Part shown: positions 33,001 to 50,942 of the stretch, in pieces
Position numbering within the stretch: the first letter of the stretch is position 1
Layout: every line of letters begins with the position of its first letter
NCBI GenBank assembly: GCA_004298075.1
Contig: SCRK01000054.1
Location: forward strand, 1 to 50,942
Length of the DNA: 50,942 nt
Reading direction: 5' to 3'
Source: a bacterium
GTDB taxonomy: Bacteria > Omnitrophota > Gorgyraeia > Gygaellales > Profunditerraquicolaceae
Notes under the pieces: model-generated
What the model was told of the DNA's origin: nothing
What the model saw: only the letters and a program-made list of their open reading frames with translations
Database searches by the model: none
Made by a program: the position numbers and the translations under genes

Positions 33001-36000
33001 GTAAACAACACAGCGCCTCGCCGCTGGCTTCAAGTTTCAATCCTCTGATGGTAAAGACGATGGAATTATTGCTTGATTCTCGCCCCGAGCTCAAGGATTT
33101 GGTCCAAGGCATTAACTCTAGGATAGATGGGCTCGATATAAATAAGGCGCTTAAGGATACAGAACTGCCGGATGAATTCATCGCTCATCTCAAGACGCAT
33201 TGCCCGGAGAAAATACTGGGAGTAAAAGACATGCTAAGGGAAATGGGCACTCTAAAAGATGGTTATTTCCTGGGGGTAAGGGATAAAAAGAGCATATTCA
33301 TCGGATTAATAGAAGCATTTAATCTACAAAATTATGAGGATGCATATGATCAGTTGGGTATCTCTCCTTTTTGCCATAACCACACCGGGAACCTGATGGG
33401 TGCTTTATCTGCAGGTGCTTTTGGTAAGCCCGTGGTATTTTGTTTACCTTCTGGGATTTTTAGCTATGAGGGCGCTTATTATACGCCAAAAGAAGTCAGA
33501 TGGCTGCTAAGCAGATATCAGGCATATCCTGAAATATTAGACAATTTTTATTTTGTCCTGGGTTTGTTTGAGCTTGTGTCAAATACGGAATATATCCCGT
33601 ACCAAGGACTTGAAAATGGATGGAAAGTGGCAGGGGCGATAGCATATGCCTTTAACAAATATTATGACAGGCAAAGCGCCTCGCCGCTGGGGAGCTATCC
33701 GGTAGAATTTATATACTTTTGTAACCCGGGATTTATCCTTGGACTTACTAAGGATATTGAGGTACTGTTGAGCGCGAAAAAATATTCCTTCCCCGCATCT
33801 ATTACCGATAGCCACGAGGGCATACTCCCTTGGCTTAAAAAATATGAACGCATTCTACCTTGCAGCGGAATTCTTGTTTTTGATGACCACGATGACCCAC
33901 TAAGGGATAAGGAAGGCGGATGGATCAGAAAGGCCTTTGAGGATAATTTAATCAGCGGTTATGAAATATTCCAGCCTGGGTCATTAGACGGAAAGTTAAA
34001 ATTAGCCCCTGAAACCCAGGTTCATCGCTATTGGATCAGCATTGAACTGGATTATTTATTTTCAAGGCCAGGTCTGGCAAATTATCAGAAAGATCTGATA
34101 GAAAGAAAATTGCAACAGATAATCGATTACCTCGTATACAATAAAATTGTATGTTGCGGGTTGAATGTGGCCACCGCGATACACGCTTATTATTCATATC
34201 TTCCTGCCGATCTGCCGCAAAAGATTATTTCGCGTACGATTTTGCGCACCTTTGAATTATTCCACAGGTTTGATGTGGAAACAATGTTTCATGTTAACAG
34301 TATACCATCTTCGGGGCAGGAAGTTTTGCCTGAGTTAGGCCCGGAGCCGGCTAATTTTAGTCATTCCACGGCAGAAGAAGGAAATACTTGTTCTTCTGCC
34401 TTGGAGTTAAAAATGGCTGAAAGAGAGGTCCGGTTAAAACTTAAGATTGCCGATAAATTAAGGCGGGAGGGTGCGGTGGATTTACGCCAATTCAGCCAGG
34501 AATTAGGATTAAGCAGGGATGCTCTCGCAAGGTTAATCAAAATTTTAAGGCCGATATTGGGAGAGGTCTGCGATGTAATCGAAAAAGCCAATCTCTTCCC
34601 TACCGGCATCGCAAAGACAAGGATGGCGATTCATCAGGAAGGAGATTGGCATAGAACTGATCATATTATAGGCGTATCTGAGGATGGTTTAAGAGTAGCC
34701 ATACAAACGCGCCGCGACAAGAAAGATAGAGGGGGATTGTTTGTGACCGGTCATCTTGCCGTAGGGGAAAACGCTCAAGAGTCATTAGCCAGGGAGATGG
34801 AGGAGGAAATAGGGGTAATCAACCTCGATATTTCCAGGCTCTACAGGGTGTTCAGATATTTCTATAAAATTGGGAGTAGTGAATATAAGGGTAAACCCGG
34901 ATACGACAAAGACATATTTTTATATAGTACTTCCGATATTGCAAATAGGGAAGTTTCTTATCTGTATCTTTACGTAATCCAAGAACAGGAAGAGCAGCTT
35001 CTTAATCTGGGTATCTCTACCGAAGAAGTAAAGGGGATAAGATTTATCCCATGGGCTGATTTAATAATAGATATATTTGAGTGTCCGGAAGCGTATCATT
35101 CGGCCGTCACGCAGTACTTCATAAGGCCGGACTTTTTCGATATTTTAGCGCAAATTAATTTTAAGGAAGATCATAAGCACCTGCAGGATATTTTTGAGCA
35201 ACTCAACCCGGAATTCCTCAGGATCAGGAGACGGTATATCGCGGGCTCGCCGCTGCGGCAAGAAATCTGCCTTGTTCCGCAGTTATTTAACCGTTCCAGG
35301 CAAAAAAAACTGTTAAACCGGACTATAGAGTTATTGGAAGAAGTTTGTTATTTGGGTAGGGATGCCGAAGGCAATAAAATTGAATACAGATTTACTGTCT
35401 CCCAGGGAAGCCCGGAATACTACCTGCCTGCTAATCCTTCCTGTAGGTTCTGCGGACCGGAAATACAGCGCTTATTCCCGGATACGGCTAATTTTAGTCA
35501 TGCAGCAGTGGTGGTTGACCGGATCACCTTCAAGTCTCTTAGGCCGTATCATCATGAGATAAGATATTCCGTGCAGATATCGCAATACTGTGACTCGGAG
35601 AAAACCTTGTTGGATACTCTCCTGGGAGTAAGCGCCATATGGGAAGATAGCCGGGTAAAACAACTAACAGGAATTAAGGCCAAGACGGCTTCATTAAGGA
35701 TGGCCCTGAAAGCAAGGCTGAGGGACTTGAATAAAGATTTTACCAGATTTTATCCGGATAACGGGGATGAAGAGGGAGCTTCCTCTCCGCTGGCACAGTC
35801 TATCATTAATCCTAAAGATATATCAAGCGGCCAAAAACTTGCCGATATTATTCAGAAGATTATTTTAACTCCCTATCCGTCCTCCAGGCATTATCCGGAA
35901 TACCCGAGGGATCATGGCTGCCATTTCCGCTTTTTTCCCACAGGGACTAAGGCATTCTTCGCTGGCGGCACTGCCTCTTCGCCGTTGGCACGCAGAGAAC

Positions 36001-39000
36001 AACCGCTTGCCGTTTGTCCGTTGGCCACGGGGAGAGAAGGCGAGTATATTTTTGCTTACAGGAAATTAATAGAGGAGGGGCTGGTTTTTTATAAAACTGC
36101 CCTGGCCAGCTTATTTTTTGTTTTTCGCAGGATCGCCCGCCAATATTTGATAGATGTGTTCGATCTGGAAAGGATGCAACAGGCGGCATACCTTGACTTC
36201 AGAGTGGCATCAAATGACACCAAGTTTGTTGAGCTAAATGAAGAATCAGCATGGTATCAGCTATTGTCATTCAGCTCTCGCGTGGAGGAGGCTTTGCAGG
36301 AGTACGGTTCCACTATAAAGATTCTTCCTGGTTGCGCAAGAGAAGCGGCTCTTGGTATTTATGTGCATCCACGATATCGGAATTTGAGGAACGGGAAATT
36401 ACTCATCTATAACCTTGATGAAATCTTGATGGCTGTTTTTCTGGAGTTTGGGTTTGAGCAGAGGGCGCGGGAAGCGCATATCTGGCCCAGAGATCATCAG
36501 AGCTACAGTTATTTTAAAGAAAAATACGGAGCTAAAGATATACCGGGTAACGGCGAATGGCTTCTTATAGGGCTGGATCAAAAAAAGAGGAATTATCCCG
36601 ATATTGGCATTATAGATGATAGCAACGGAATGGCAGAATATTTTTTAGTAAAAGGAAAAAGAGAGGGAGCAGCAGGCAGGGAATATTCTTCTTCGCCCCT
36701 CACTCCTCAAGAGCGGGCGAAATTATTATTTGAAAGCGCGGGGGTTAAAGATTTATTTGCGCGCCTTGTGCGATATAGGGTAATCCATGAGAAGTACATT
36801 TCTGATATCAGAGAAAATCTTTTTAATCTGGTGAACATGCCATTTGCTCCGAAAGATAAATTATTTGACAGCATAGATCTCTTATCCGAAGATACGCTTA
36901 TTAGCTCCATCTTGGCATTGATAAAGAACAAAAAATTGTTCAGGGGCACGGGAATGGAAGAGGCGTATTCTCTTGATGAGTTTTTGCTTAAAAGCGGCGG
37001 CAACAGGGATGATGTTAAAGGTACGTTGTCACATATTTTATTTTATTTTGTTTCAAATTTTCGTAATGAATCAGTATTTTCTGAGAGTAAGCCCGAACTT
37101 GAAAACGACCCAAAATACCTTAAAACTTCTCTTTTGGAATGGCAGTTTATTTATTCTCTTTTGAGGTTGGAGTATGTTTCAACCCATGGTTTCACTGAAT
37201 CCGGGGCTTCGCCGCTGGAAGATGCAATAGTATTTACGCCGGAGAAATTTTATATTAGTTTACAGGAGAAGGATTACCCTTTTATCCTAACTTTACCCGT
37301 TAGAAATTGCGGCGGGGTGAATCTGCCTTTCTATTTTTTAAGGGATTTGGCGTTTAAGGAACCCGTTTCTCTTAAAAAAGGGGATTTTATTGCCGCCTTC
37401 AGGAACAATGGTTTTATAACCTTGCGGATAAGCAGAGAAATTTTGGCAAAATTAAACTCTCGTTTAGAGGGCCGAGAGTATTTAAAAAATCTCGCATTTG
37501 AATGCTATTCCTTTCTTGCGCAATACGCAGGAAATAATATATCCCTTAACCCTTGGCAACAATTATTATCTTTGGACACAGAGCGCGATTGTATAAGTTA
37601 CTATGAGCGCGCAAGGGAGCCTTCCTTGGAGCAGGTTTTTGTGCGTATTAACCATAAACTAAAAGATTGTTATGCTCCGGATAAGTTTATGGCAGAAGCA
37701 AAGGATATATTCCGCCATATCTTTACCGGTGACTCCGGCATTAAGGGCCCCCTCTTCAGGGTAATTTCAGAAAAGGGATTAATGGAGATGGGGCAATTAG
37801 GCTATTATTTTGCCGCCGAAGGAGAAGTTTTTGAAAGCAAGAGAGCAGTCCTAAAGAATGAAGGGTCCCTGATTAATAGCAGAATTTTTGGGACAGCTAT
37901 TTTGGGGATTCCTGATACAAATACAGGAGTATACTTCGTAGCTGGAGCAAAGCAGGGTCTTGTTAAGGTATACGCTAGCCATTGCGTATCAGAAGGGCGC
38001 GTTAAAATAAATAAAAAATGGGTGGATTTAAAGCAATATCTGGAGAATGCGGATAATTATCAATTGCCTGATTCCGGTTCCTCACCGCTGACATTAAATG
38101 AATATGATTTGCTTTTTACCGCTATAGCTGAAATAGAGAGCGCTATCCCCGGATCTTACCCGGTATCGCAGCTACGATGGCATCAGTTCAGGTCGTTCAT
38201 GCATCAGATGCGCGATAAGCATGCCGTGAACGTTGAGATATTCTCGCTTTCGCAGGAATTGGCGGAGGGAGGGAGAGGGTTTTTACCGGTCAATTATCTG
38301 CACATAAATGATACCATTGAAAGCATTCGGGATGCTCATGTCCAGAGTTTATATCCCCGGATGAAAAGGCGCGAGAAGTCATTCTTATCGCGTGGATTAA
38401 GAAATGTTGTGCAGCACTGCCGGAATGGGATCGCTGTTGTGTTAGCCATGCCCGCGCAAGAGCATATAGCGGCCGCCATCATTGACAATGGCAGCGGTTT
38501 CCAAAATGAGCGGGGGGAAAGAATATCTATACAATCCGCAGTAACATTCGGCAGTTCATACGGATCAACAAAATCAATGGGTATGGATTTATCTTTGATG
38601 GTCGGTTCTGCCGATATTTCAATAATTATGCAGCCATCCGAGACAGGGATCTTATATCCGGCCTGGTGGGGATTTGGTAATCACTCAAACTGTTTAGTCA
38701 GCTTTAAGAACGCCAAGAAATACGGCCTGACGGTTATGGGCTTATTTTATAAGGGTAAGTTTAGAGATTTTTGGCCATGGAGGCGTCAGCTGTTCCAGAT
38801 TATTCCGGTGGCCTTAAGCATGGCGGACGAAAACATCTTTGGTGTTTCTTCCCCCCTTTCCTTCAAAGCGGCCGCGCCATTAGCAAGCCGGAATGTTTTT
38901 GGTAATTCTAAATGCGCTAGCGCTTTGAAAGTGAGAGGTCTCAATGCTATCGGTCTTAAAGATGCCCTGGGGTTATCATTAGGTTTTCTTTTTCCTGCGC

Positions 39001-45000: not shown

Positions 45001-48000
45001 AACAAAAGTGGAATCTTAGTTATTTATATCAGTGGAAGTATACGAATCTTACAGGATTCAATATTATCGTGAAGTGGCTGAAAAGATATCTTTCGATAGA
45101 ATATTATTTTGGTGATCCGGATAGGTACAGAAATAATCGCGACGCATTCTTAGTTTGCCAAAGCTATGCTGAAATGGATAAGTTGAGAGATAGAATTATC
45201 GCATCTGGAGTTGTGGATTATTTTCTAGACAGGGGAGTGCATTGTAAATACAGGTATGTTTATATATATGAGCGCGTCAAAGAATTGCTTTTTTGTGGCC
45301 TCAGTGATGGAATGCGCAATGGCGACGAACAAGATGCCCCTGAAACGGTGATGGGTTTATCTAATAAACAGGGAATTTCAGCCGCCGCCTCGCCGCTGGT
45401 AGAATATCCATATTTGCGCGACCGTGTGGCAGTTGGAATAAGAAGGATCGCGCATAATGCGATATTTGGGCTAAAACTTGATCCCATTCTTGCATTTTTA
45501 AGCGACAAAAGGGATAAGGAAGATCAAGAACTGGTAAGAAGATTTAAATCTCTAAGAACGGATGTTATTAAAAATAGAAACGGAGAAAGAAAATGGATTG
45601 AGGAATTTGCTTATATTTACCAAGAAAGAATAAAGTTATTAAGTTTAAAGACCTACAAATTGAGGGAATTTGAATTTTCCCCCATTGAATTATTACGTAC
45701 AAGTTATGATTTTATCTGCTGCAATTCCCCAAAAGATATCTTAGATACCTATTATATAAAAGAGGCTTTTCAGGCATATCTCATGTATGTGTATAATGAA
45801 AGATTTGATTGGAAGGGACGTGGACATGTTAATGCGAATGCAATCGATTTAATTTCTATGCTAATAAACATATTTGATAATGCCGTAGAGGTGACCGGAT
45901 GGCGAAAAAGGGAAAGCATGGAAAAACATGTTGCTAAGTTTCTTGTCAGCGCTTACTGCGAAGATGATATGTTTGTTATTGAGATTCAAGATAAAGGAGG
46001 GGGCATACCTGAAATCAGCTTGGAACGTGGCAAATATGAGGATAAAGGCCTTCGTTATTCGAAAATCTTTGATTACGGGTTCTCAAGGGGTAAAAAAGGA
46101 AGCGGCATAGGTTTAGCAGAGGCATTTTTCGTCATCAGTGACCATAAGGGGACAATAGAGATAAAAAATAACCCTGGCGTAGGAGCTGTTTTTGCTATCA
46201 AGTTGCCATTGGTAGGGAGTGATTCACCCGAACGCGCCAGTGGAGCCTCGCCGCTGGAGCAGGATGCTATATCGGCTCTTAAATCAGAATTCCTCAAGGT
46301 ATATAATGTGATCAGCACGCAGGAAATATTGGATTACTTAGAGGAAGATGGTTCTCTTTTTATGCGCTATACAATGGCAGGAGTCTGTGGCAGGGTAGCT
46401 TTTTTCCATGAACGTGCAGAAATATGGTATCTCCATACAGTAATGGGGATCACGGCTCCGTATGTTTCGCAGATAAGTGGCAGAGAGTACCTTTATGCTC
46501 ATGCGTTCGCTATAGACAATGAATTTGACTTAATACAAAAAGAAGCATTTGAACAAGGGTGTCCAATATCCAAAGAGGCATTGGTATTAACCGCGCCTGA
46601 TGCGTTTATATTCCCCAATGATCCAGATGCAGTAGCAATGTTTAATTTGAGAAATTTCCTCATAGGCGCTTGGTGGGGATGCCTAAACAATATTCCTTCC
46701 GACATAGAGGCCGAAGCCGCACTTAATTTTTACCTTGCAGATGAACAAATGTTCACAGTTATAGACGATACGCAATCTGGGTTGCTCAGTAGGGATGAGA
46801 TAAAACAAGCAAGCCAGAAACTGCTGCGTCAAATCCGATTTTATAAAATAGAAATATCCAGGTTAGTTCAATATAGCAAAGAAGTGAAGTTAGGTAGGGT
46901 ATTCAGACTAATATCTCTTGCTATTATGAAAAACAATAAACATGAATTAAGAAAAATTCTACAAAGGCTGTCATTTGGTGGCTCATCTCTGATTGCATCT
47001 AAAGACAAAACTATCTACATGCAAACAGCTGATTGCAGATTATTGGATACCAACAAGGGCGCCTCGCCGCTGGCGCTTGAAAGCGGGGGTTATAAAGCAA
47101 TAAGAATCAATGGCAAGGATTATTATCCATTAATCAGTCCTAAAGGCGACCTTGAATTTAGGTTTGATATTTCGGCCATAATAAGAGAAGAGCTGTCATC
47201 CATTATAGATGATTTGCAGCAAGACATGATTAAGGAGGATACATCTTTAGATATATTTAAAGCTGGATATTGGCAGACGCGCTATCTCGAATTAGAAGAG
47301 CAAGAAATCCAGCTGATAGCCGATAAACTTAGGGAGCTTCTATTATGCGCAAACCGGATTTGCATAGCCGGAATTGAGACCCTTTCATCGTTAGCTAGGC
47401 ATAAATTTATCTTGGGTATGTTTTTGGGTAATCAGCATTGCGCTGAGCATTCGATTAAGCAGGTTAAGGCACGCCAATTATTTGAAATAATGCAGTCCAC
47501 AATGAAAAGGCTGGGTATTTCATATCCGGTATATGTCTTTGGGAGCGCGGCTAAATATGGCTTGAGAGAGGGGCATGATATAGATATCGCAATTCCGGAG
47601 GAGAGATTTTTTAGGGCGCCGACGATTAACAGATTGATTGAGAATTTAAGAATTGAGCTTTCCGGGTCTTCGTATTGGGGCCCAACCATTAAAGACAGGT
47701 TATCTTTAGCGGAGCTGACCGAGAAGAGGCCGGATTTCAATCCATTCCTACACGGTATTATTTATCGAATTTCATCCGATTCTATTACCCCGATACAGGA
47801 TTATAATGAGCTACATGAAACCATAAGAAATGATACGCATGGCGCTTCGCCCCTGGTGCGCCATAGCGTACAGGAAAAAGTTATAGGTCTAAAAGATTGG
47901 CACGGTTTTATTCCCGCATTAAAACAAGAGCTAAATAAACAAGATTACCGTAAGGATTACGTAGTTATTAGGGTTTTTAAGGCAAATAGGATCAAGGTTT

Positions 48001-50942
48001 TACTTAAGACGGGAACCGACCGCGACCAAACTTCACGTATATGGAATTATTGGGAAGACTTATTGCCATATTCACAAGAGAAAATTAATCCTGAAGAGGT
48101 GATATATGCTTATCAATTGGAATTAGATCGTGAGAAATGGGAAAAAATCTACAGCCCGCTGTCTTCCGGATATCTCGACATTTATACTTACATAGAAAAT
48201 CTACCAGTAACAGCAGCAATAAGTATTTATGAACCAGAAGGGCTCAGAAGATTTCCCGAAGTTGAGTATCAATTTGTTCGACAACCTAGTAACATTTTAT
48301 TAGGCGTTTTTATACTTGATTATAATGCGGTTTATATACGCGGCGCCTCGCCGCTGGTGGCGGATAGCAGTTCTATCATTGAGAAAAATGAATTCTCTCA
48401 GTTTGTCTGGAAAAAAGATACCTCTCGTATAATAGAGGAAGGGAAGTGGGATGAGGGTCGGATAGGTATATATCCCAGTAGAGAGATTATGCATTTGCAG
48501 TTATTTGAAGAAGCAACTGAGTTAAGGATGAGTTTGGCAGTAGTCAAAGGTAACGATAGCAAGTGGAAGGCAATATTGCTTTATGTTGAAGATATGGAAG
48601 GGGAGCAAATTGAAAGGCAATACGAGTATCTTTATAAAGATAATGAAGCCATGTCTTTTGCTACGCGTTTCTATGAGGAGCGCAGGGAACTACAAATGAG
48701 GGTGGATAAATGGTTTTACAGATATTTACGGAAAAACCGGCTTATAAGCGGAGAGTTGAAAAATGGCTTAAAATGGATAATTAGCCGTGGTTTTACTCCT
48801 CCCCTTTCTGCCGTGCCGGGTTTATTTGATAGGATCTGCGGTCAGTTTGCGGACAACCTCATGAATTATCTTGAGAATTTGCGTATTGACAAACCTTTGA
48901 TTTTCCAGAAAATTCCAATGCGTTTATTGAATTCCTATGCTGATAACCGCAATAGTTTAATTGAGCTTTTAGGCTTACTTTTCGGATACCCCGAAGAGTA
49001 TATCAGTAGATTCCCTAAGCTTTCTGCTATGGGAATTGCTTTTGATGCCCGGGATTCAGGGCTTGAATTGAGCCCATACCAGTTATTTAAGCAGTATTTT
49101 GAGGATTTGCTCAGCAAGTATATTAATAATCTGAACTATGACGAAGAAAGAAACCGTCTGGTAATTGACGTGCGATACCCAAAAGAAGGGAGTTTCTTGC
49201 TGGTTAAAAAGCCCATAACCGAGGGAATTAAGCATTATCCTCTGCCGGCGGGAAAGAGGGTCGCCATAGTTGAGATCAGTAAGAACGGCCATATGCCGTT
49301 TGCCGGTAACTTCATTAAGGCGCTGAGCGAAGAAAACACAATAAGAGTATTTACTCTCGGCTCAAGTAATCCGGGTAGTATTCTTGAAGGGTATGAACCG
49401 GATATTATTTTAGCGCCTTATTCCTTAAGTCTTTGCAAACAGATCGGGGATTATCTGTTCGGTAGAAAGGGAGAGCAAATCGTATTTTATTATCCGTCAT
49501 TAGAGTCATCTCCCGGTTTTAATCTTTGTTTCAGCTTCAATAAGCCTGTCGCTAGAAAAGCAGCCGAGGCAATAAAAACGCACAAAAGCCAGCAGTCGCG
49601 CAGGGATTATCAGGGGTTTACCCGTTATGCTATGCAGTTTTGGGCTAATCTAGCCCGCTATTACGGGTTTATCGGGAGGGGGCCAAGGTATGCTAATGCC
49701 TTTGCTATAGGACATATCTGTAACGGAATAATTATGTATCCCAATCTTAATAAACGCTATGCGTTTGTTTTCGGCGCAGAAGCGGTTGCGGATGGTTTTA
49801 TTCCCGTAAGGATAGAAAAAAATACTATTATCAGATATGGTTCTCCGCATGCCGACGATATGGAGATTTCCGGAGCAGGTGTCGTAATCGCAGTTACCAA
49901 AACAGGCAAGAGGATATCAAATATAGTGTATAGCAGCGGAGGGGACAAGAGAAGGAGGAAGGAATTGAGCGACGCAACCAGGATATTGTCTCCTCAAAAC
50001 AGGATAAAAAATAAAATTTTGAGCCTTGAAAAAGAAGCGGAAGAATCGGCTTTTCAAAAACTCTACGAAAACGAGAAAAATTTCCTGGAAAGCAGGATCC
50101 GCTCTATACGCGGACAATCGAGGGGAATAATTATTTTTATGCCTCACAGAAACGACAGCCACCGTACGCACAGGAAATTTACTTCGTTATTGGAGCGGGT
50201 TTGGACTAATTTGTCTGAGGAATATGGCTTAGATGTCATCGTCGCCTATTATTTTGCCCCTTCAGCCGGAAATTTCAATACTTATTTTCTTTCTCCGCAC
50301 AATATAGACGCAAACAAGCGAGATAATGGAAAAATAAGCAGAGAGATAAATTTAACAGAACCTTTCAAGCGGGCAACAGCCATAACCGCTCCCGCGCGCT
50401 GCGGTCAGTCCGGCAAAGGCAGTCCAGATTGGATGCACTTGCCTTTTGGAGAAGCATTTTATCGGGAATCTTATTACGATGGCAAGTGCGCCTCGCCGCT
50501 GGCGCAAAGGGACAGGTGCCTGGTTGGCTTTGCAGGCGGTGTAGCTTCGGCTTTGCAGACGGCGCAGGGATCGCAAGACAGGCTTGAGGGTTTTTTCCCG
50601 AAGACATTTAAAAAATTAAACACGGCATTTAATGGTGTGCATGAATTACCGCGTTCAGATAGCTCGTTGAGAGAAGCATTGCTCCGGATAAAAAATTGGG
50701 AAAAAGTTAATTTGTTTACAGCATTGAGCTGGTGGTTTTGGATGGGGCTCGCCTCCGTTTATCCTAAGATCGGGATAAATATGCCTGTTGCGATAATTTG
50801 CACGTTCGGTTTCTGTGTATTTGGGAGCTTTTCGTTGTCTAACCGTTATTCTCGATTAAGAATTCAACGTTTACTTGGGAAAAAACAAAATAGGAAGAAT
50901 TCTGGTTCACCTGTTGTTTTGCCGCAGGGCGCCTCGCCGCTG
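3..50942 (+). CDS. Internal fragment of a giant multi-module ORF (16,980 codons in window; both ends lie outside the window)
   Basis: Manual translation in the phase starting at nt 3 met no TAA/TAG/TGA in any stretch I translated; I checked 3-9960, 14100-15500, 18120-19750 and 29580-30400 most closely. Every recognisable catalytic motif and all ~55 ASPL-type motifs start at positions divisible by 3. The ORF track lists no + ORF in this phase (all listed + ORFs are in the other two phases), as expected if a single ORF runs off both edges. Confidence 0.9.
345..371 (+). other. Walker A / P-loop (GMGGSGKST) in the 5'-most module (nt 3-3149)
   Basis: ggc atg gga ggt tca ggc aag agc aca = GxxxxGK[ST]. 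A possible Walker B, NIVIYIGD, lies about 110 aa downstream. The rest of the module is unrecognised. Confidence 0.5.
3138..3149 (+). repeat. ASPL-type punctuation motif (SSPV)
   Basis: tcc agt ccg gtt, in phase; context VSSSPVKA. Confidence 0.7.
3840..4085 (+). other. HEAT/ARM-like helical repeats (weak)
   Basis: NNPYDRVKAIRFASHL...DPEDIVRLQAIIALAQM...EAALRGYLCF resembles HEAT-like repeat spacing; no strong signature. Confidence 0.25.
4314..6255 (+). other. GH77 4-alpha-glucanotransferase (amylomaltase/MalQ-like) module
   Basis: Blocks GMQGAGDLAGVLKLLEYAALSGLRIVQLLPF, WDWRLWPEEL, NVKLMCDVPFSPEGADVWMYPEAF, ILRFDHNLGAYRTY, LVVEALG, LHDSPT and C-terminal NNPDPKSSHPNWRARMP match the conserved amylomaltase blocks in order. 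Confidence 0.85.
6597..6608 (+). repeat. ASPL-type motif variant (SSPQ) ending a Ser-rich linker after GH77
   Basis: agt tcc cct caa, in phase; context LASSPQSD. Confidence 0.45.
7370..8520 (+). other. GH13-like (alpha-amylase family) catalytic module
   Basis: GFDGARVDLAHNL at 7746-7784 (region II, nucleophile Asp), FFILETY (region III Glu), LVLVIANYDERS (region IV Asp), in the canonical order. Confidence 0.6.
8913..8993 (+). other. Predicted transmembrane helix
   Basis: VILVTAILGSILLFGPLPALTGLCLAV, an uninterrupted hydrophobic stretch followed by basic residues. Confidence 0.6.
9357..9368 (+). repeat. ASPL-type punctuation motif (SSPL)
   Basis: tcc agt cct tta; context SAASSPLATV. Confidence 0.85.
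9942..9953 (+). repeat. ASPL-type punctuation motif (ASPL)
   Basis: gct tcg ccg ctg; context RFSASPLEGG. Confidence 0.85.
10203..10214 (+). repeat. ASPL-type punctuation motif (SSPL)
   Basis: tcc tcc ccg ctt; context FDTSSPLSAK. Confidence 0.85.
10380..10960 (+). other. Sigma-70 family module #1 (regions 2 and 4)
   Basis: Region 2: DDLMQIATFG...GLARAVELFDPDNGGLFSAYAKMWIKSALSQGL. Region 4: ISARDKDILISH...IGKRHKISNERVRQILDRTTQQLKEM. Confidence 0.85.
10975..11870 (+). repeat. Six tandem Fis-type (HTH_8-like) helix-turn-helix units
   Basis: Units such as EKEWLMPALASCGGNISEAARKLVIAEQCLRKKL, ILHALDEADYSVPRAAALLSMSTDTLYQNISDLGVDL, ITAALEAAGYDISKAARMLVVNLNTLRWRIKSHKID and ITEALIFCGNRVSLVSRFLKISKDILYDRIKIYGID, plus two more divergent units upstream. 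Confidence 0.7.
12027..12038 (+). repeat. ASPL-type punctuation motif (ASPV)
   Basis: gct tcg ccc gta; context GCSASPVTLI. Confidence 0.85.
12660..12671 (+). repeat. ASPL-type punctuation motif (SSPL)
   Basis: tct tcc ccg ctt; context PIGSSPLASA. Confidence 0.85.
12780..12791 (+). repeat. ASPL-type punctuation motif (ASPV)
   Basis: gct tcg ccg gta; context LVCASPVVSP. Confidence 0.85.
12828..12926 (+). other. Internal signal-peptide-like leader (n-h-c regions, A-S-A end)
   Basis: RTRALFRSIWSANAPPLIIAAILSVFLSAPASA|NYS begins 12 codons after the ASPV motif at 12780. Confidence 0.55.
13128..13345 (+). other. TPR repeats
   Basis: GRLPEAKEVFLKILGMEKRIAPVHYSLGIIELALNNPEETRRYAETAIKLEPGHPLGYELLGYAYIAL. 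Confidence 0.6.
13611..13622 (+). repeat. ASPL-type punctuation motif (SSPI)
   Basis: tcc tcg cct att; context RSGSSPISVG. Confidence 0.8.
13764..13775 (+). repeat. ASPL-type punctuation motif (ASPL)
   Basis: gct tcg ccg ttg; context VVCASPLAYG. Confidence 0.85.
14211..14222 (+). repeat. ASPL-type motif variant (GSPL)
   Basis: gga tcc ccc ctg; context VRAGSPLGNT. Confidence 0.5.
15480..15491 (+). repeat. ASPL-type punctuation motif (ASPL)
   Basis: gct tct ccg ttg; context LSTASPLITG. Confidence 0.85.
15549..16125 (+). other. HAD-superfamily hydrolase module
   Basis: Motif I MIIFDMGKTL (Asp codon at 15561), motif II LVVATNT, motif III GKPHP, motif IV VVGDRWDIDI. Confidence 0.75.
16179..16190 (+). 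repeat. ASPL-type punctuation motif (SSPV)
   Basis: tct tct ccc gta; context VSCSSPVGFG. Confidence 0.85.
16260..17000 (+). other. Alpha/beta-hydrolase-like module (tentative)
   Basis: Nucleophile-elbow-like HLAESLGC (A-E-S-L-G at 16560-16574) after VIFTHGRG. Module size and layout are compatible with the fold. Confidence 0.45.
17136..17147 (+). repeat. ASPL-type punctuation motif (SSPL)
   Basis: tcc tcg ccg ctg; context VVSSSPLVEF. Confidence 0.85.
17259..17270 (+). repeat. ASPL-type motif variant (SSPA)
   Basis: tct tct ccc gcg; context IFSSSPARKT. Confidence 0.5.
17300..17620 (+). other. RelA/SpoT-type (p)ppGpp synthetase-like nucleotidyltransferase domain
   Basis: KKVDDIMGLRIISADMY...KKGYEATHINF matches the D-x-x-G-x-R-I-I and G-Y-x-x-x-H signatures of the RelA_SpoT synthetase domain. 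Confidence 0.7.
17829..17930 (+). other. TGS-like segment (weak)
   Basis: NKIFVMYLGQKKEGMSMQVVSLPKKSRPEDLFSI resembles the TGS beta-grasp (IFVFTPKG..I.LP.GST..DFAY). Confidence 0.3.
18111..18122 (+). repeat. ASPL-type punctuation motif (ASPL)
   Basis: gct tct cca ttg; context KPSASPLLME. Confidence 0.85.
19734..19745 (+). repeat. ASPL-type punctuation motif (SSPV)
   Basis: agt tct cct gtt; context PSSSSPVAKV. Confidence 0.85.
20040..20230 (+). other. ACT-like segment (weak)
   Basis: YVLEFDLPNRPGSRINLANFFELNKISVSQ...VHFIFELEIP resembles the ACT fold signature (D-R-P-G...). Confidence 0.3.
20440..20830 (+). other. HD-domain (p)ppGpp hydrolase (SpoT-type) module
   Basis: YIMHPIGVAEIAV (His codon at 20457), AGLLHDVIEDAG (HD at 20589-20594), LLIKIADRIHNLSTI. 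Confidence 0.85.
21213..21224 (+). repeat. ASPL-type punctuation motif (SSPV)
   Basis: agt tct ccg gtt; context GRTSSPVNRL. Confidence 0.85.
21660..21671 (+). repeat. ASPL-type punctuation motif (SSPL)
   Basis: tct tct ccg ttg; context ANGSSPLGAC. Confidence 0.85.
21879..21890 (+). repeat. ASPL-type punctuation motif (SSPL)
   Basis: tcc tct ccg ctc; context SNVSSPLKKS. Confidence 0.85.
21966..22305 (+). other. Polytopic membrane module (about 4 TM helices)
   Basis: LSTAVVIVFVVLVALFANAIFSLMI / YAIWFFTTVCILVISAVLFALVFPYLV / AFITGIIIGAAFGFLG / ALIWFSLTIIASGYLHW. Confidence 0.65.
22383..22394 (+). repeat. ASPL-type punctuation motif (SSPV)
   Basis: tcc tcc cca gta; context NKASSPVQKS. Confidence 0.85.
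23109..23120 (+). repeat. ASPL-type punctuation motif (SSPL)
   Basis: tcc tct ccg tta; context VFTSSPLNPG. Confidence 0.85.
23205..23555 (+). other. Polytopic membrane module (about 3 TM helices)
   Basis: ITLCLIVMVGIIIYLIYPLVSV / LFLAALITMAGALFSKWFF / IYSVFIILGAGIVAVFFNVV. Confidence 0.65.
23631..23642 (+). repeat. ASPL-type motif variant (SSPA)
   Basis: tca agc ccc gct; context NRSSSPAFVT. Confidence 0.5.
23745..24330 (+). other. Ser/Thr protein-kinase-like module (atypical)
   Basis: Hinge VTEYVEGKPLY and catalytic loop LLHADIKLENILI (H-x-D-x-K-x-x-N at 24126-24149). VKLIDPW stands in place of DFG, and VVARL where VAIK is expected. Confidence 0.65.
24483..24494 (+). repeat. ASPL-type punctuation motif (ASPL)
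   Basis: gcc tct ccg ctt; context SCCASPLSAE. Confidence 0.85.
24640..25420 (+). other. CheR-type SAM-dependent methyltransferase-like module
   Basis: FRIDVYSLGGSYGDEAYSIALVLYE (24888-24950) parallels the CheR block RIWSAGCSTGEEPYSLAM. Downstream VDVIFSLNVLPY parallels D.IFCRNVLIY. Confidence 0.6.
25491..25502 (+). repeat. ASPL-type punctuation motif (ASPL)
   Basis: gcc tca ccg cta; context RLSASPLRSG. Confidence 0.85.
25551..25612 (+). other. Hydrophobic leader/TM-like segment directly after a motif
   Basis: VWRLTNLVIVSSLLFLNPSYAS starts about 16 codons after ASPL at 25491. Confidence 0.45.
25857..25868 (+). repeat. ASPL-type punctuation motif (SSPI)
   Basis: tct agc ccg att; context GGSSSPIYAG. 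Confidence 0.8.
26160..26760 (+). other. Sigma-70 family module #2 (regions 2 and 4)
   Basis: GNAAARETLIMAYLPLVYGRVKRF...RDDLVQVGIYG...GFARAVELFEARIGWMGFSHYATRWIDAAM. Region 4: ISERDGDMLVSRLAEESLVSVGKRYGVSHTRVKQIVDQLKVRL. Confidence 0.85.
26829..26840 (+). repeat. ASPL-type punctuation motif (ASPL)
   Basis: gct tct ccc ctt; context LTAASPLGGP. Confidence 0.85.
26920..27560 (+). other. Possible class I SAM methyltransferase-like module (weak)
   Basis: TVAAGWAGTD (motif I-like), AIMINDF (acidic residue at the end of beta-2), LKWIKPGGFLIF. Confidence 0.3.
27666..27677 (+). repeat. ASPL-type punctuation motif (ASPL)
   Basis: gct tcg ccc ctg; context SFSASPLQSQ. Confidence 0.85.
28401..28412 (+). 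repeat. ASPL-type punctuation motif (SSPL)
   Basis: tct tct ccg cta; context RGVSSPLSDR. Confidence 0.85.
28593..28604 (+). repeat. ASPL-type punctuation motif (SSPI)
   Basis: tca tcc ccg ata; context RNSSSPIYSY. Confidence 0.8.
29100..29515 (+). other. Histidine-kinase-type ATPase (HATPase_c / GHKL) module #1
   Basis: N box IIINAMEAS, G1 IKDNGSGI, F box FEPLFTTK, G2 GSLGVGLSIAKEI, then TTVIVTLP. Confidence 0.85.
29523..29534 (+). repeat. ASPL-type punctuation motif (ASPL)
   Basis: gcc tcg ccg cta; context EFSASPLEAE. Confidence 0.85.
29586..30390 (+). repeat. Five tandem ~37-aa W/G-rich repeats (homing-endonuclease-associated-repeat-like)
   Basis: Codon-by-codon translation gives DPRNYKEWQRAGYGPLVRRSSEILGGWHNVVNKLGF / RNTWNYRQWEKSGYSRMVRRASEIFGGWENVLKEI / RNPMDRRTWIRIGHFEMAKLALSLFGCWDNLLKEV / DPRNSKEWERAGYWQMLHYTRKLLGGWINAVKAAGY / DPRNSQVWMDKGYSQPVHRLIATYGSWANALNKFGY. 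Confidence 0.6.
30520..30830 (+). other. Sigma-70 family module #3 (region 2 only; no region 4 seen)
   Basis: GNEAAREALIVIVGLRIVKSVAWSF...VDDLVQAGIYG...GFARAAEIFDPNREGGCKFTSFARIWAKWAIIGEL. Confidence 0.75.
30981..30992 (+). repeat. ASPL-type punctuation motif (SSPL)
   Basis: tct tcc ccg ctg; context VISSSPLGLP. Confidence 0.85.
31113..31199 (+). other. Internal signal-peptide-like leader #2 (A-S-A end)
   Basis: LLRAPPPALALVFMLFSNLPALASLPASA|YSY; a paralogue of the leader at 12828-12926. Confidence 0.5.
31390..31745 (+). other. TPR repeats
   Basis: AAEDFFKKGDFDEAVDSYLSVLMKEPDLPYISFRIAQAF ... YLLRADILLRLSRLEKDKSQLLEAKDNLEKALQLNPA. Confidence 0.6.
31812..31823 (+). repeat. ASPL-type punctuation motif (SSPL)
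   Basis: agc tcg ccg ctc; context LPGSSPLKNE. Confidence 0.85.
31880..32900 (+). other. Guanidino-group-modifying enzyme fold (amidinotransferase / arginine- or agmatine-deiminase-like)
   Basis: FYFEGGDVLPAGENIFVGEKVIARN (EGGD block), YFHLNTSVTFLP, and C-terminal NGYWRCSMNIGG (candidate catalytic Cys). Confidence 0.55.
33015..33026 (+). repeat. ASPL-type punctuation motif (ASPL; exact GCCTCGCCGCTG)
   Basis: gcc tcg ccg ctg; context QHSASPLASS. Confidence 0.9.
33678..33689 (+). repeat. ASPL-type punctuation motif (ASPL; exact GCCTCGCCGCTG)
   Basis: gcc tcg ccg ctg; context DRQSASPLGSY. Confidence 0.9.
34630..35060 (+). other. Nudix hydrolase module
   Basis: Perfect Nudix box GHLAVGENAQESLAREMEEEIGV (G-x5-E-x7-R-E-U-x-E-E-x-G-U) at 34749-34817. 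Confidence 0.8.
35244..35255 (+). repeat. ASPL-type motif variant (GSPL)
   Basis: ggc tcg ccg ctg; context YIAGSPLRQE. Confidence 0.6.
35781..35792 (+). repeat. ASPL-type punctuation motif (SSPL)
   Basis: tcc tct ccg ctg; context EGASSPLAQS. Confidence 0.85.
35976..35987 (+). repeat. ASPL-type punctuation motif (SSPL)
   Basis: tct tcg ccg ttg; context GTASSPLARR. Confidence 0.85.
36270..36530 (+). other. GNAT acetyltransferase-like module (tentative)
   Basis: LGIYVHPRYRNLRNGKLLIYNLDEIL (motif A-like) and DHQSYSYFKEKYGA (motif B-like). Confidence 0.4.
36690..36701 (+). repeat. ASPL-type punctuation motif (SSPL)
   Basis: tct tcg ccc ctc; context EYSSSPLTPQ. Confidence 0.85.
37206..37217 (+). 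repeat. ASPL-type punctuation motif (ASPL)
   Basis: gct tcg ccg ctg; context ESGASPLEDA. Confidence 0.85.
38079..38090 (+). repeat. ASPL-type punctuation motif (SSPL)
   Basis: tcc tca ccg ctg; context DSGSSPLTLN. Confidence 0.85.
38390..38620 (+). other. GHKL-ATPase-like segment #3 (divergent)
   Basis: GLRNVVQHCRNGIAVVL ... AAAIIDNGSGFQNE (G1-like) ... KSMGMDLSLM (G2-like). Confidence 0.35.
38847..38858 (+). repeat. ASPL-type punctuation motif (SSPL)
   Basis: tct tcc ccc ctt; context FGVSSPLSFK. Confidence 0.85.
38961..39197 (+). other. Polytopic membrane module (about 3 TM helices)
   Basis: GLSLGFLFPALAQAFF / MLVVTIIEALLCRQLF / FLGFGIGVFLAGMYTGFPITLSLLSFLISLYYMF. Confidence 0.6.
39216..39227 (+). 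repeat. ASPL-type motif variant (RSPL)
   Basis: cgt tcg ccg cta; context EKIRSPLIRA. Confidence 0.5.
40002..40013 (+). repeat. ASPL-type punctuation motif (ASPL)
   Basis: gcc tct ccc ctg; context HPAASPLAHR. Confidence 0.85.
40310..40500 (+). other. Transglutaminase/papain-like Cys-His-Asp candidate (tentative)
   Basis: DPDGYCDFTSAFLAKLL (G-x-C-x-x-x-[AS]-x-F), His about 36 aa later in HYEDHMFI, then NLYIDL. Confidence 0.3.
41067..41078 (+). repeat. ASPL-type punctuation motif (SSPL)
   Basis: tcc tcg ccg ctg; context ARNSSPLVNI. Confidence 0.85.
41190..42030 (+). other. Radical SAM enzyme module with C-terminal Cys-rich (SPASM/twitch-like) region
   Basis: IHPTSICNNRCIGCIG (C-x3-C-x2-C at 41217-41240), FSGLTGEPL (GGEPL-like), and SCNLPKSCLNCVACQ...YPCSH at 41931-42020. 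Confidence 0.8.
42207..42218 (+). repeat. ASPL-type punctuation motif (ASPL; exact 12-mer, extended GCCTCGCCGCTGGCGCAA)
   Basis: gcc tcg ccg ctg gcg caa; context NIAASPLAQG. Confidence 0.9.
42336..42347 (+). repeat. ASPL-type punctuation motif (ASPL; exact 12-mer, extended GCCTCGCCGCTGGCGCAA)
   Basis: gcc tcg ccg ctg gcg caa; context GISASPLAQE. Confidence 0.9.
42378..43390 (+). other. NAD(P)-dependent epimerase/dehydratase (extended SDR) module
   Basis: ITITGHTGDIGATLL (G-x-x-G-x-x-G at 42396-42416) and YDISK (Y-x-x-x-K at 42921-42935). Confidence 0.7.
43560..44540 (+). other. 3-dehydroquinate-synthase-like sugar-phosphate cyclase module
   Basis: [85 protein letters not shown] and HGEAVGIDIL match DHQS-family blocks. 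Confidence 0.85.
44616..44627 (+). repeat. ASPL-type punctuation motif (ASPL; exact 12-mer)
   Basis: gcc tcg ccg ctg; context SRSASPLAEI. Confidence 0.9.
44706..44774 (+). other. Pol-beta-type nucleotidyltransferase signature (tentative)
   Basis: GSSRYLSTGSRFVPLDYISDVDV (G-S ... D-x-D). Confidence 0.4.
45387..45398 (+). repeat. ASPL-type punctuation motif (ASPL; exact 12-mer)
   Basis: gcc tcg ccg ctg; context SAAASPLVEY. Confidence 0.9.
45850..46215 (+). other. Histidine-kinase-type ATPase (HATPase_c / GHKL) module #2
   Basis: N box LINIFDNAVEV, G1 IQDKGGGIPE, G2 KKGSGIGLAEAF, then GAVFAIKLP. Confidence 0.8.
46245..46256 (+). repeat. ASPL-type punctuation motif (ASPL; exact 12-mer)
   Basis: gcc tcg ccg ctg; context ASGASPLEQD. 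Confidence 0.9.
46380..46545 (+). other. Second Cys-His-Asp candidate (weak)
   Basis: MAGVCGRVAFFHE, His about 38 aa later in LYAHAFAIDNEFDL; same spacing pattern as 40310-40500. Confidence 0.2.
47061..47072 (+). repeat. ASPL-type punctuation motif (ASPL; exact 12-mer)
   Basis: gcc tcg ccg ctg gcg c; context NKGASPLALE. Confidence 0.9.
47470..47620 (+). other. Pol-beta-type nucleotidyltransferase core
   Basis: VYVFGSAAKYGLREGHDIDIAIPE (hG[GS]-x9-D-x-D). Confidence 0.6.
47844..47855 (+). repeat. ASPL-type punctuation motif (ASPL)
   Basis: gct tcg ccc ctg; context THGASPLVRH. Confidence 0.85.
48345..48356 (+). repeat. ASPL-type punctuation motif (ASPL; exact 12-mer)
   Basis: gcc tcg ccg ctg; context IRGASPLVAD. 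Confidence 0.9.
50490..50501 (+). repeat. ASPL-type punctuation motif (ASPL; exact 12-mer, extended GCCTCGCCGCTGGCGCAA)
   Basis: gcc tcg ccg ctg gcg caa; context GKCASPLAQR. Confidence 0.9.
50712..50850 (+). other. Two predicted TM helices
   Basis: LFTALSWWFWMGLASVY ... MPVAIICTFGFCVFGSFSL. Confidence 0.55.
50931..50942 (+). repeat. ASPL-type punctuation motif (ASPL; exact 12-mer) forming the last four codons of the window
   Basis: gcc tcg ccg ctg; context PQGASPL. Confidence 0.9.

Follow-up and report, generated by a model that had tools for sequence, protein, structure and literature searches.

In polymorphic toxins, a short peptide motif (VENN in CdiA, PxxxxDPxGL in Rhs) bounds exchangeable modules, and the DNA encoding it provides the homology for their replacement. 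The Rhs junction motif is also a site of autoproteolysis. The vls locus of Borrelia is composed of contiguous silent cassettes in one reading frame with 17-bp direct repeats, short identical repeats being used in recombination. Giant open reading frames (ORFs) of Omnitrophota, including the class called 'multi-enzyme metabolic cluster', have been described by Nielsen & Lui (2026, bioRxiv 10.64898/2026.06.07.730766), while West-Roberts et al. (2023, bioRxiv 10.1101/2023.11.21.568195) stated that the cleavage points of giant proteins are unknown, which blocks their domain-wise analysis. Neither of these two reports describes a junction or cleavage motif. Here, a giant ORF was analyzed that fills a stretch of 50,942 nucleotides (contig SCRK01000054.1, assembly GCA_004298075.1), hereafter called the window. 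Its gene-sized cassettes are joined by an in-frame element, [SGAC]-[AS]-S-P-[LVI], whose canonical nucleotide form is the 12-mer GCCTCGCCGCTG. A description of the [AS]SP[LVI] junction element was not found in the literature searched. We propose, with a probability of roughly 45%, that the junction is a cassette boundary under both peptide and nucleotide constraint, which would act as a processing or docking site in the protein and as a unit of in-frame joining or crossover in the DNA.

As its single ORF exceeds 10,000 codons and contains many Pfam families, the window appears to belong to the known Omnitrophota multi-enzyme giant ORFs. Frame +3 is devoid of stop codons, while the remaining five frames contain 586-1369 stops each. 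About 54 modules of gene size make up the mosaic polypeptide, which is tiled by approximately 15 distinct domain families, none of them dominant. Mutually unrelated Pfam domains follow each other along the ORF, namely GH77, sigma-70, HTH_8 (Fis-type HTH), HAD, RelA/SpoT, HD, Pkinase and CheR as well as two HATPase_c domains, NUDIX, radical SAM, NAD-epimerase, 3-dehydroquinate synthase (DHQS) and PIG-L. Like the described giant ORFs, the window runs for more than 10,000 codons without a stop, contains many Pfam families with none dominating and has its relatives among Omnitrophota metagenome-assembled genomes (MAGs). Its content of HATPase, HAD, HD, radical SAM, ROK-neighbour and NUDIX domains fits the published modules 1 and 2. 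The nearest homologs with a named source belong to Candidatus Omnitrophota/Omnitrophica MAGs (up to 82% nucleotide identity); a marker gene is not present in the window. A close relative was not detected among genome contigs searched with a single protein, among viral contigs or among metagenome contigs (the last with matches of only 26-28% identity), and word-based protein searches gave few hits; an exhaustive phmmer search and a profile scan of GTDB genomes proved more productive. What goes beyond the published description is the regular [AS]SP[LVI] junction together with its conservation at the nucleotide level.

Occurrence of the junction element

The peptide [ASG]-S-P-[LVIM] occurs 54 times in the ORF, compared to 2.8 occurrences in residue shuffles, and is preceded by a small residue (S, G, A, C or T). 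At the nucleotide level, the junctions follow the consensus nnC-KCY-TCG-CCG-YTG-G. A preliminary description of the window, made from its letters alone, had reported eleven exact copies of GCCTCGCCGCTG. All of them were recovered (Table 1), all on the + strand, while dinucleotide-preserving shuffles never contained one (mean 0.00, maximum 0). Allowing up to two mismatches, 27 matches (25 on the + strand) were obtained versus 3.1 expected. The eleven start positions are all divisible by three, so that every 12-mer lies in the frame of the giant ORF and is read Ala-Ser-Pro-Leu.

The same description had stated that nine of ten motif copies toward the 3′ end are exact, that the complete copies are all followed by G and that three copies share an 18-mer. 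These statements proved to be correct. From position 42207 to the end of the window, nine of the ten [AS]SP[LVI] copies are exact, the exception being GCTTCGCCCCTG at 47844; the next base is G in 10/10 complete exact copies; and the 18-mer GCCTCGCCGCTGGCGCAA (ASPLAQ), which reaches past the peptide motif, was found at 42207, 42336 and 50490. Conservation among the exact copies is confined to positions −2 to +12 (gcGCCTCGCCGCTGg), outside of which their flanks are unrelated. The 30 junctions upstream of nt 33015 have kept the peptide, and none of them (0/30) shows the exact 12-mer. Over the whole window, the Hamming distance to the 12-mer declines in the 5′ to 3′ direction (Spearman rho = −0.59, p = 3e-6). 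For the 9-mer TCGCCGCTG, five copies besides the 12-mers had been claimed, but six were found. The additional one (21817-21825) is out of frame and is the only copy of the 9-mer off a junction, while the copy at 35247 sits within a Gly-Ser-Pro-Leu variant (GGCTCGCCGCTG) at 35244.

To place the junctions in the protein, an AlphaFold2 (AF2) model of aa 14069-14899, made with full-length homologs, was inspected. Three junctions fall into segments with a predicted local distance difference test (pLDDT) score <50 (model residues 1-55 and 787-831), which flank the confidently modelled epimerase and DHQS domains. According to this model, the junctions are predicted to lie in unstructured linkers between domains.

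Codon choice at the junctions

Calculated from the codon usage of the ORF itself, the probability of GCC TCG CCG CTG for a given ASPL is only 0.0006-0.002, whereas 11 of the 24 ASPL copies actually have these codons. TCG is the rarest Ser codon of the ORF; GCC and CCG are not rare. Nucleotide identity therefore exceeds the demands of peptide and codon usage, as had been supposed from the identical codon choice, and codon usage of the whole gene, which might have accounted for the preference, fails to explain it. An origin of the pattern in chance, codon bias or faulty assembly, for which nothing more than the general GC-richness of the motif could be put forward, is practically excluded in view of the empty shuffles and the codon-usage null of about 0.001 per ASPL. 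In addition, no copy is out of frame or on the opposite strand, the 12-mer is much shorter than assembly k-mers and it recurs in separately deposited assemblies.

The assertion that the upstream copies use all synonymous codons was overstated. Among the 43 non-exact junction copies in the window, the second residue (Ser2) is encoded by TCN in 39 (background 0.63, p = 3e-5) and by TCG in 16 (0.10, p = 2e-6), and Pro by CCG in 26 (0.34, p = 3e-4). CTG encodes Leu in 12 of 31 non-exact copies (0.18, p = 0.005). A pyrimidine occupies the wobble position of codon 1 in 48/50 junctions of the window (p = 8e-12) and in 23/26 junctions of other loci. In the window and the other loci alike, the −1 codon ends in C and the +1 codon begins with G, even though the residues encoded by the latter (A, G, V, E) are chemically unrelated. 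Modules between two exact 12-mers have a lower GC content at third codon positions (GC3; 0.39 vs 0.47, p = 0.014), hence the GC-rich junction runs counter to the local composition. Because of the synonymous biases and the identity of the 12-mer across organisms (see below), peptide constraint plus drift is excluded. It follows from the biases in 'decayed' copies that either some selection on nucleotides or a long-lived copy process is required.

It is conceivable that the nucleotide sequence is functional in the mRNA or in translation, and that its identity is kept by purifying selection and not by recency. A slow TCG-CCG-CTG patch (three NNG codons) could, for example, pause ribosomes at module boundaries so that the protein folds or is cleaved during translation; alternatively, a nuclease or a binding protein could recognise a short motif in single-stranded RNA. 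Such a function agrees with the recurrence of the synonymous constraints (wobble Y, −1 C, CCG, TCG and +1 G) in decayed copies and in other assemblies, and with the low share of TCG among the Ser codons, which amounts to 5-13% across all loci. On the other hand, GCC and CCG are not rare codons, selection of this kind left no exact copy among the 30 upstream junctions, and neither an Rfam match nor a frameshift or stop pattern after the junctions was detected.

A special case of an RNA-level function had been suggested in the form of a conserved hairpin with GCGCC/GGCGC arms and an 8-nt loop, which would serve mRNA processing or as a regulatory structure. The inverted arms do exist at the three sites for which they had been described (GCGCC/GGCGC at 42334-42351 and 47059-47076, TGCGCC/GGCGCA at 50487-50506) and form 5-6-bp GC arms there. 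With 8-nt flanks, the folding of exact copies is slightly more favorable than that of flank-shuffled controls (mean z −1.1), and their minimum free energy (MFE) is −14.3 compared to −10.7 for the core in random flanks (p = 0.002). However, full arms are present in only 3/11 copies, the MFE structures vary from copy to copy and the excess of stability fades with 12- and 20-nt flanks. Covariation of the arms is absent over 99 junctions of 8 loci (p = 0.10, or 0.53 when only non-exact copies are considered), and the arms are accounted for by a small −1 residue coded NGC and Ala (GCG) at +1. The window contains neither Rfam families nor tRNAs. We consider a conserved hairpin to be very improbable.

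Some further candidates were tried and rejected. A cluster of rare codons was discarded as the sole explanation, since GCC and CCG are not rare and the closest relative found (locus L008) uses the common AGC. Stops in the alternative frames are no closer at junctions than at random positions, which speaks against a frameshift to a nearby stop. Internal starts or Shine-Dalgarno sequences were dismissed since GTT, GTA, CTT or TTA often stands as the fourth codon and purine-rich sequence upstream is absent. A Chi-like or uptake-sequence oligomer does not fit either, as sub-k-mers are not enriched off the junctions, copies on the minus strand are lacking (0) and all copies are in frame. Signal-peptidase-like sites were discarded because the approximately ten hydrophobic segments within 16,980 aa are unrelated to the junctions. 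Finally, recent duplication of modules carrying the junction along is contradicted by the unrelatedness of the modules and the absence of long repeats.

Module homology and order in related giant ORFs

In an exhaustive phmmer search with aa 15133-16118 as query, the matches fell module by module. Protein P0008 aligns precisely with the module that the junctions at aa 15415 and 15687 enclose, and P0009 matches the module that starts at aa 15133. The 167-aa module (aa 15952-16118) is matched by P0013 and by many Met-initiated stand-alone proteins of 140-200 aa. Alignments of clear homologs end within 10 aa of a junction in 15 of 29 informative cases, compared to 7.6% of random positions (p = 5e-10). 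The cassettes correspond to stand-alone genes elsewhere, and the units between the motifs behave as cassettes, as the preliminary description had considered.

The comparison of module order in relatives, which it had recommended, likewise favors the cassette idea. Modules 49 and 34 of the window occur in opposite order in P0008, and an Omnitrophica scaffold (L026; GCA_028710715.1, nt 4171-23530) contains at least five window-like modules in a different order that is provisional on account of N-run gaps. L008 has only the epimerase-ROK-DHQS cassette in common with the window, despite a nucleotide identity of 75-82% there. Between these two loci, nucleotide homology begins approximately 12 nt after the 42336 copy and ends approximately 57 nt before the 12-mer at 44616. 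The junction that follows the DHQS domain differs at 8/12 nucleotides between the window (GCCTCGCCGCTG) and L008 (AGTAGCCCGGTA), although it borders on DNA that is 82% identical. Cassettes have moved between giant ORFs and changed their order, homology breaking off at the junction or close to it, and a junction can be replaced in less time than the domain beside it needs to diverge.

Junction forms in other giant ORFs

Five exact copies of the 12-mer were detected in three other Omnitrophota assemblies, on the contigs encoding P0008 (L022), P0009 (L023) and P0158 (L026), two of the copies being in L026. Thus, 5/16 ASPL copies of these loci are exact versus 0.032 expected (Poisson p = 3e-10). 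The modules they have in common with the window show 29-58% protein identity. Where residues are conserved in L022 and L023, the codons are identical in a fraction of 0.36-0.49, compared to 0.36-0.41 expected from codon usage alone; the best module of L026 is 73% identical at the nucleotide level. Some junctions located at the same place are more alike than their modules, e.g. 11/12 vs 70%.

Since the same exact 12-mer occurs in three assemblies whose modules are 29-58% identical, recent homogenisation confined to this genome is insufficient. The earlier idea of a recent spread or homogenisation by gene conversion agrees with the clustering of the exact copies. A broader version would be that short-patch gene conversion or template switching homogenises the junctions while the DNA itself is without function and the peptide alone is selected. 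Besides the clustering, the different coding of junctions among giant ORFs, the existence of haplotypes (see below) and the replacement of a junction beside a conserved domain are in line with this. By contrast, the unrelated flanks beyond −2 to +12 leave a conversion tract without starting homology, and the same exact 12-mer in other organisms as well as the wobble constraints in non-homogenised copies would have no explanation. Concerted evolution as the only process is thus quite improbable.

Other loci encode the junction differently. In L008, SSP[VI] is coded AGY-AGY-CCG-RTH at nine consecutive junctions, AGC and AGT being the commonest Ser codons. In the low-GC loci L001 and L002, the junction is written in AT-rich codons. 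Over 119 junctions of nine loci, the codon family of the first Ser (Ser1) is tied to residue 4 (Fisher p = 7e-5; p = 0.006 without L008), V/I being found with AGY and L with TCN. The commonest variant among these 119 junctions is the exact 12-mer with 16 copies, followed by a variant with three. Junctions come as nucleotide 'haplotypes', which propagate as units.

For a function in mRNA or translation, these data have consequences in both directions. The exact 12-mer is present in four assemblies in spite of the low identity of the modules, the codon identity tested is close to the expectation from codon usage, and the same-place junctions mentioned above exceed their modules in similarity. 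On the other hand, L008 encodes the same peptide with the commonest Ser codons over nine junctions in a row, P0005 and P0006 use AT-rich codons, and the linkage of the Ser codon family and residue 4 fits the inheritance of whole units better than selection site by site. This explanation is the main rival of the cassette boundary under double constraint. It deals better with the cross-lineage synonymous constraints and worse with the AGY form, the haplotype linkage and the replacement of junctions; on balance it is possible but rather unlikely.

Two observations concern the peptide in other proteins. Many borders in P0008 (L022) have Ser instead of Pro (ASSL, SSSL, SSSI, e.g. GCTTCATCGCTT; nt 278, 1382, 4112, 7439, 9170, 11765 and 13934), one of which coincides with the place of an exact ASPL in the window. 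Pro is hence dispensable in some lineages. P0001, P0002 and P0003, complete multi-enzyme fusions related to the epimerase-DHQS cassette, lack the [AS]SP[LV] motif altogether. Their C-termini (...LYAAA, ...LTAA and ...FLTAA, respectively) are reminiscent of ssrA-type degradation tags.

Features along the window

The positions of the ORF, of the exact and of selected other junctions and of the modules between them are compiled in Table 1.

Table 1. Junctions, modules and cassettes in the giant ORF of the window
Feature	Position (nt)	Strand	Remarks
Stop-free giant ORF	3-50942	+	At least 16,980 codons, open at both ends of the window
Junction GCCTCGCCGCTA, one mismatch to the 12-mer	29523-29534	+	Same-place junction in L026 exact (nt 7642)
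Exact 12-mer, ASPL	33015-33026	+	Left boundary of module aa 11009-11229
221-aa module between isolated exact pair	33027-33677	+	Homolog in P0008/L022 at other position
Exact 12-mer, ASPL	33678-33689	+	Right boundary of module aa 11009-11229
Decayed junction TCCTCACCGCTG	38079-38090	+	Same-place junction in L026 exact (nt 21989)
Exact 12-mer inside 18-mer GCCTCGCCGCTGGCGCAA, ASPLAQ	42207-42224	+	Sequence match
Mini-module, 39 aa (43 aa with terminal ASPL)	42219-42335	+	Between two exact junctions; no predicted fold
Exact 12-mer and 18-mer, GCGCC/GGCGC arms	42336-42353	+	N-terminal junction of epimerase-DHQS cassette
Cassette: NAD-epimerase, ROK remnant, 3-dehydroquinate-synthase-like domain	42348-44615	+	Between two exact 12-mers
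Exact 12-mer	44616-44627	+	C-terminal junction of epimerase-DHQS cassette
Exact 12-mer	45387-45398	+	Start of HATPase-containing module aa 15133-15418
Exact 12-mer	46245-46256	+	Start of module aa 15419-15690
Exact 12-mer, GCGCC/GGCGC arms	47061-47072	+	End of module aa 15419-15690
Near-exact junction GCTTCGCCCCTG, two mismatches	47844-47855	+	Start of 167-aa module
Exact 12-mer	48345-48356	+	End of 167-aa module
Exact 12-mer and 18-mer, TGCGCC/GGCGCA arms	50490-50507	+	Sequence match
Exact 12-mer, cut by window end	50931-50942	+	Sequence match

The 221-aa module enclosed by the isolated pair of exact copies sits within the region of decayed junctions and has a GC3 of 0.415, compared to 0.552 in its 5′ neighbour. 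Homology to its counterpart in P0008 (aa 4770-5001, 40% identity) stops 1 and 3 aa from the junctions. The module at the 38079 junction is identical to that of L026 in 58% of the amino acids and 73% of the nucleotides. Downstream of 42207, two exact junctions only 129 nt apart (42207-42353) have an identity of 18-19 nt (ASPLAQ) in common and may have arisen by duplication of a junction or represent a cassette slot that was emptied. The mini-module between them belongs to a part of the AF2 model (residues 1-55) with pLDDT <50.

The 42336 junction aligns with an SSPL of P0006 (TCATCGCCTCTT). Within the epimerase-DHQS cassette, the domains were modelled confidently by AF2, the linkers were not. 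All homologs (P0001-P0006, L008) possess a ROK sugar-kinase between epimerase and DHQS, which is deleted in the window. A remnant remains at approximately 43440-43520 (aa ~14480-14500), comprising only the first residues, FDIGGASVR, in a low-confidence linker of the AF2 model (residues 392-435). At the C-terminal junction of the cassette, L008 has AGTAGCCCGGTA (SSPV) and L002 AGCTCACCTTTA (SSPL). The P0009 alignment opens 3 aa after the 45387 junction, where P0009 carries TCCTCGCCGGTT, and the P0008 homolog (51% identity) covers exactly the module aa 15419-15690. At 48353-48360, the 48345 junction and the codons following it spell the Chi octamer of E. coli (GCTGGTGG), GCTGG being present in all exact copies. 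This is probably fortuitous, since GCTGG sub-k-mers do not act as signals independent of the junctions in the window.

The modules are mostly unrelated to one another, and long DNA repeats are absent from the window. The only clear internal paralogs are three modules at 10215-12038, 25869-26840 and 29535-30992 (aa 3405-4012, 8623-8946 and 9845-10330) with 37-40% identity, all of which contain a conserved 32-nt block (repeat family D5). Another repeat family (D8) is a 38-nt segment with three copies at spacings of 204 and 282 nt in one module (29586-30109), whose protein may therefore be internally repetitive. GC skew is positive along the entire window, while the GC content declines toward the 3′ end, from roughly 0.47 to roughly 0.40.

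Discussion

The junction peptide is probably a processing or linker site of the protein. In the reading favored here, a cassette boundary constrained both as peptide and as DNA, it would be the site at which a polyprotein-like product is processed (cleaved) or docked. The DNA segment encoding it would serve as the unit for the in-frame joining or swapping of cassettes, by means of short-homology or site-directed recombination. New or renewed junctions would carry the canonical sequence, whose synonymous sites drift later on without loss of the peptide. The cassettes assembled or renewed most recently would then be those marked by the exact copies clustered toward the 3′ end and by the isolated pair around the module at 33027-33677. 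With moderate confidence, the canonical copies can be regarded as the youngest or the most constrained junctions.

Several points weigh against this reading. Old copies and other lineages still show synonymous biases, which resemble continuing nucleotide selection. A model of decay with age only does not predict them, whereas a function at the RNA or translation level would also explain them. The preliminary description had contrasted older, decayed junctions at the 5′ end with newer ones at the 3′ end, which is borne out by the gradient in the window but not by the codons of the decayed copies. A gradient in the same direction was seen in L026 (p = 0.025), while L022 and L023 did not reveal a clear one. 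Breakpoints had been expected inside the motif; those that can be resolved at the nucleotide level (12-57 nt away) are near the 12-mer and not within it. A recombinase (Pfam) or a peptidase domain (E<=0.01) was not detected within the window, which is part of the ORF. Moreover, 12-15 nt are short for homologous recombination.

A more specific version would be a dedicated in-frame cassette system. Here, the 12-15-nt core GCY-TCG-CCG-CTG-G would be recognised in DNA for the capture and swapping of genes and would, at the same time, encode the processing peptide of a polyprotein, one element thus being the site of recombination and of cleavage. Such a system is unlikely.

The element is relevant to the questions whether giant Omnitrophota products are cut and how such genes are assembled. 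As a candidate processing site, it should be findable in proteomic data by neo-termini at [AS]-S-P-[LVI]. It also offers a rule for splitting giant ORFs into gene-equivalent units for annotation and structure prediction. Haplotypes and gradients from canonical to decayed copies could help to reconstruct the gain and exchange of modules in giant genes, and the cross-organism synonymous conservation points to an undescribed mechanism at the DNA or RNA level.

Compared with integron arrays, to which the junctions had been likened, the window shares gene-sized cassettes, a content and order that vary between relatives and a short conserved core at every boundary. In contrast to integrons, its cassettes are fused in one frame instead of being separate ORFs, without starts, stops or promoters of their own, attC-like imperfect inverted repeats and the GTTRRRY core are absent, and the breakpoints that can be resolved are near the core and not inside it. 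An integrase Pfam match was not obtained within the window, which lies wholly inside the ORF. The analogy therefore holds for the behavior of the cassettes and not for the integron machinery.

The junctions of polymorphic toxins follow the same dual logic of peptide and DNA as is proposed for the window. Their motif is, however, another one, and they have one junction per protein with toxin/immunity cargo, whereas the window possesses about 50 junctions in one ORF between ordinary enzymes and regulators and lacks the motifs of the toxin families. With Borrelia vls, the window has in common that in-frame cassettes are delimited by short nucleotide-identical repeats. The vls cassettes are variants of one gene, though, while the modules of the window are unrelated genes. 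Viral polyproteins and nematode polyprotein allergens also consist of one ORF with many gene-equivalent units and a short recurring linker motif. In agreement with a polyprotein, units of the window match independent proteins (140-200 aa vs the 167-aa module), and the domains in the AF2 model are split by disordered linkers. On the other hand, the window is bacterial, its cleavage is only proposed and viral sites do not show such synonymous conservation. By analogy, the junction would work most like a polyprotein with regular sites crossed with a cassette array of the integron or VENN/DPxGL kind.

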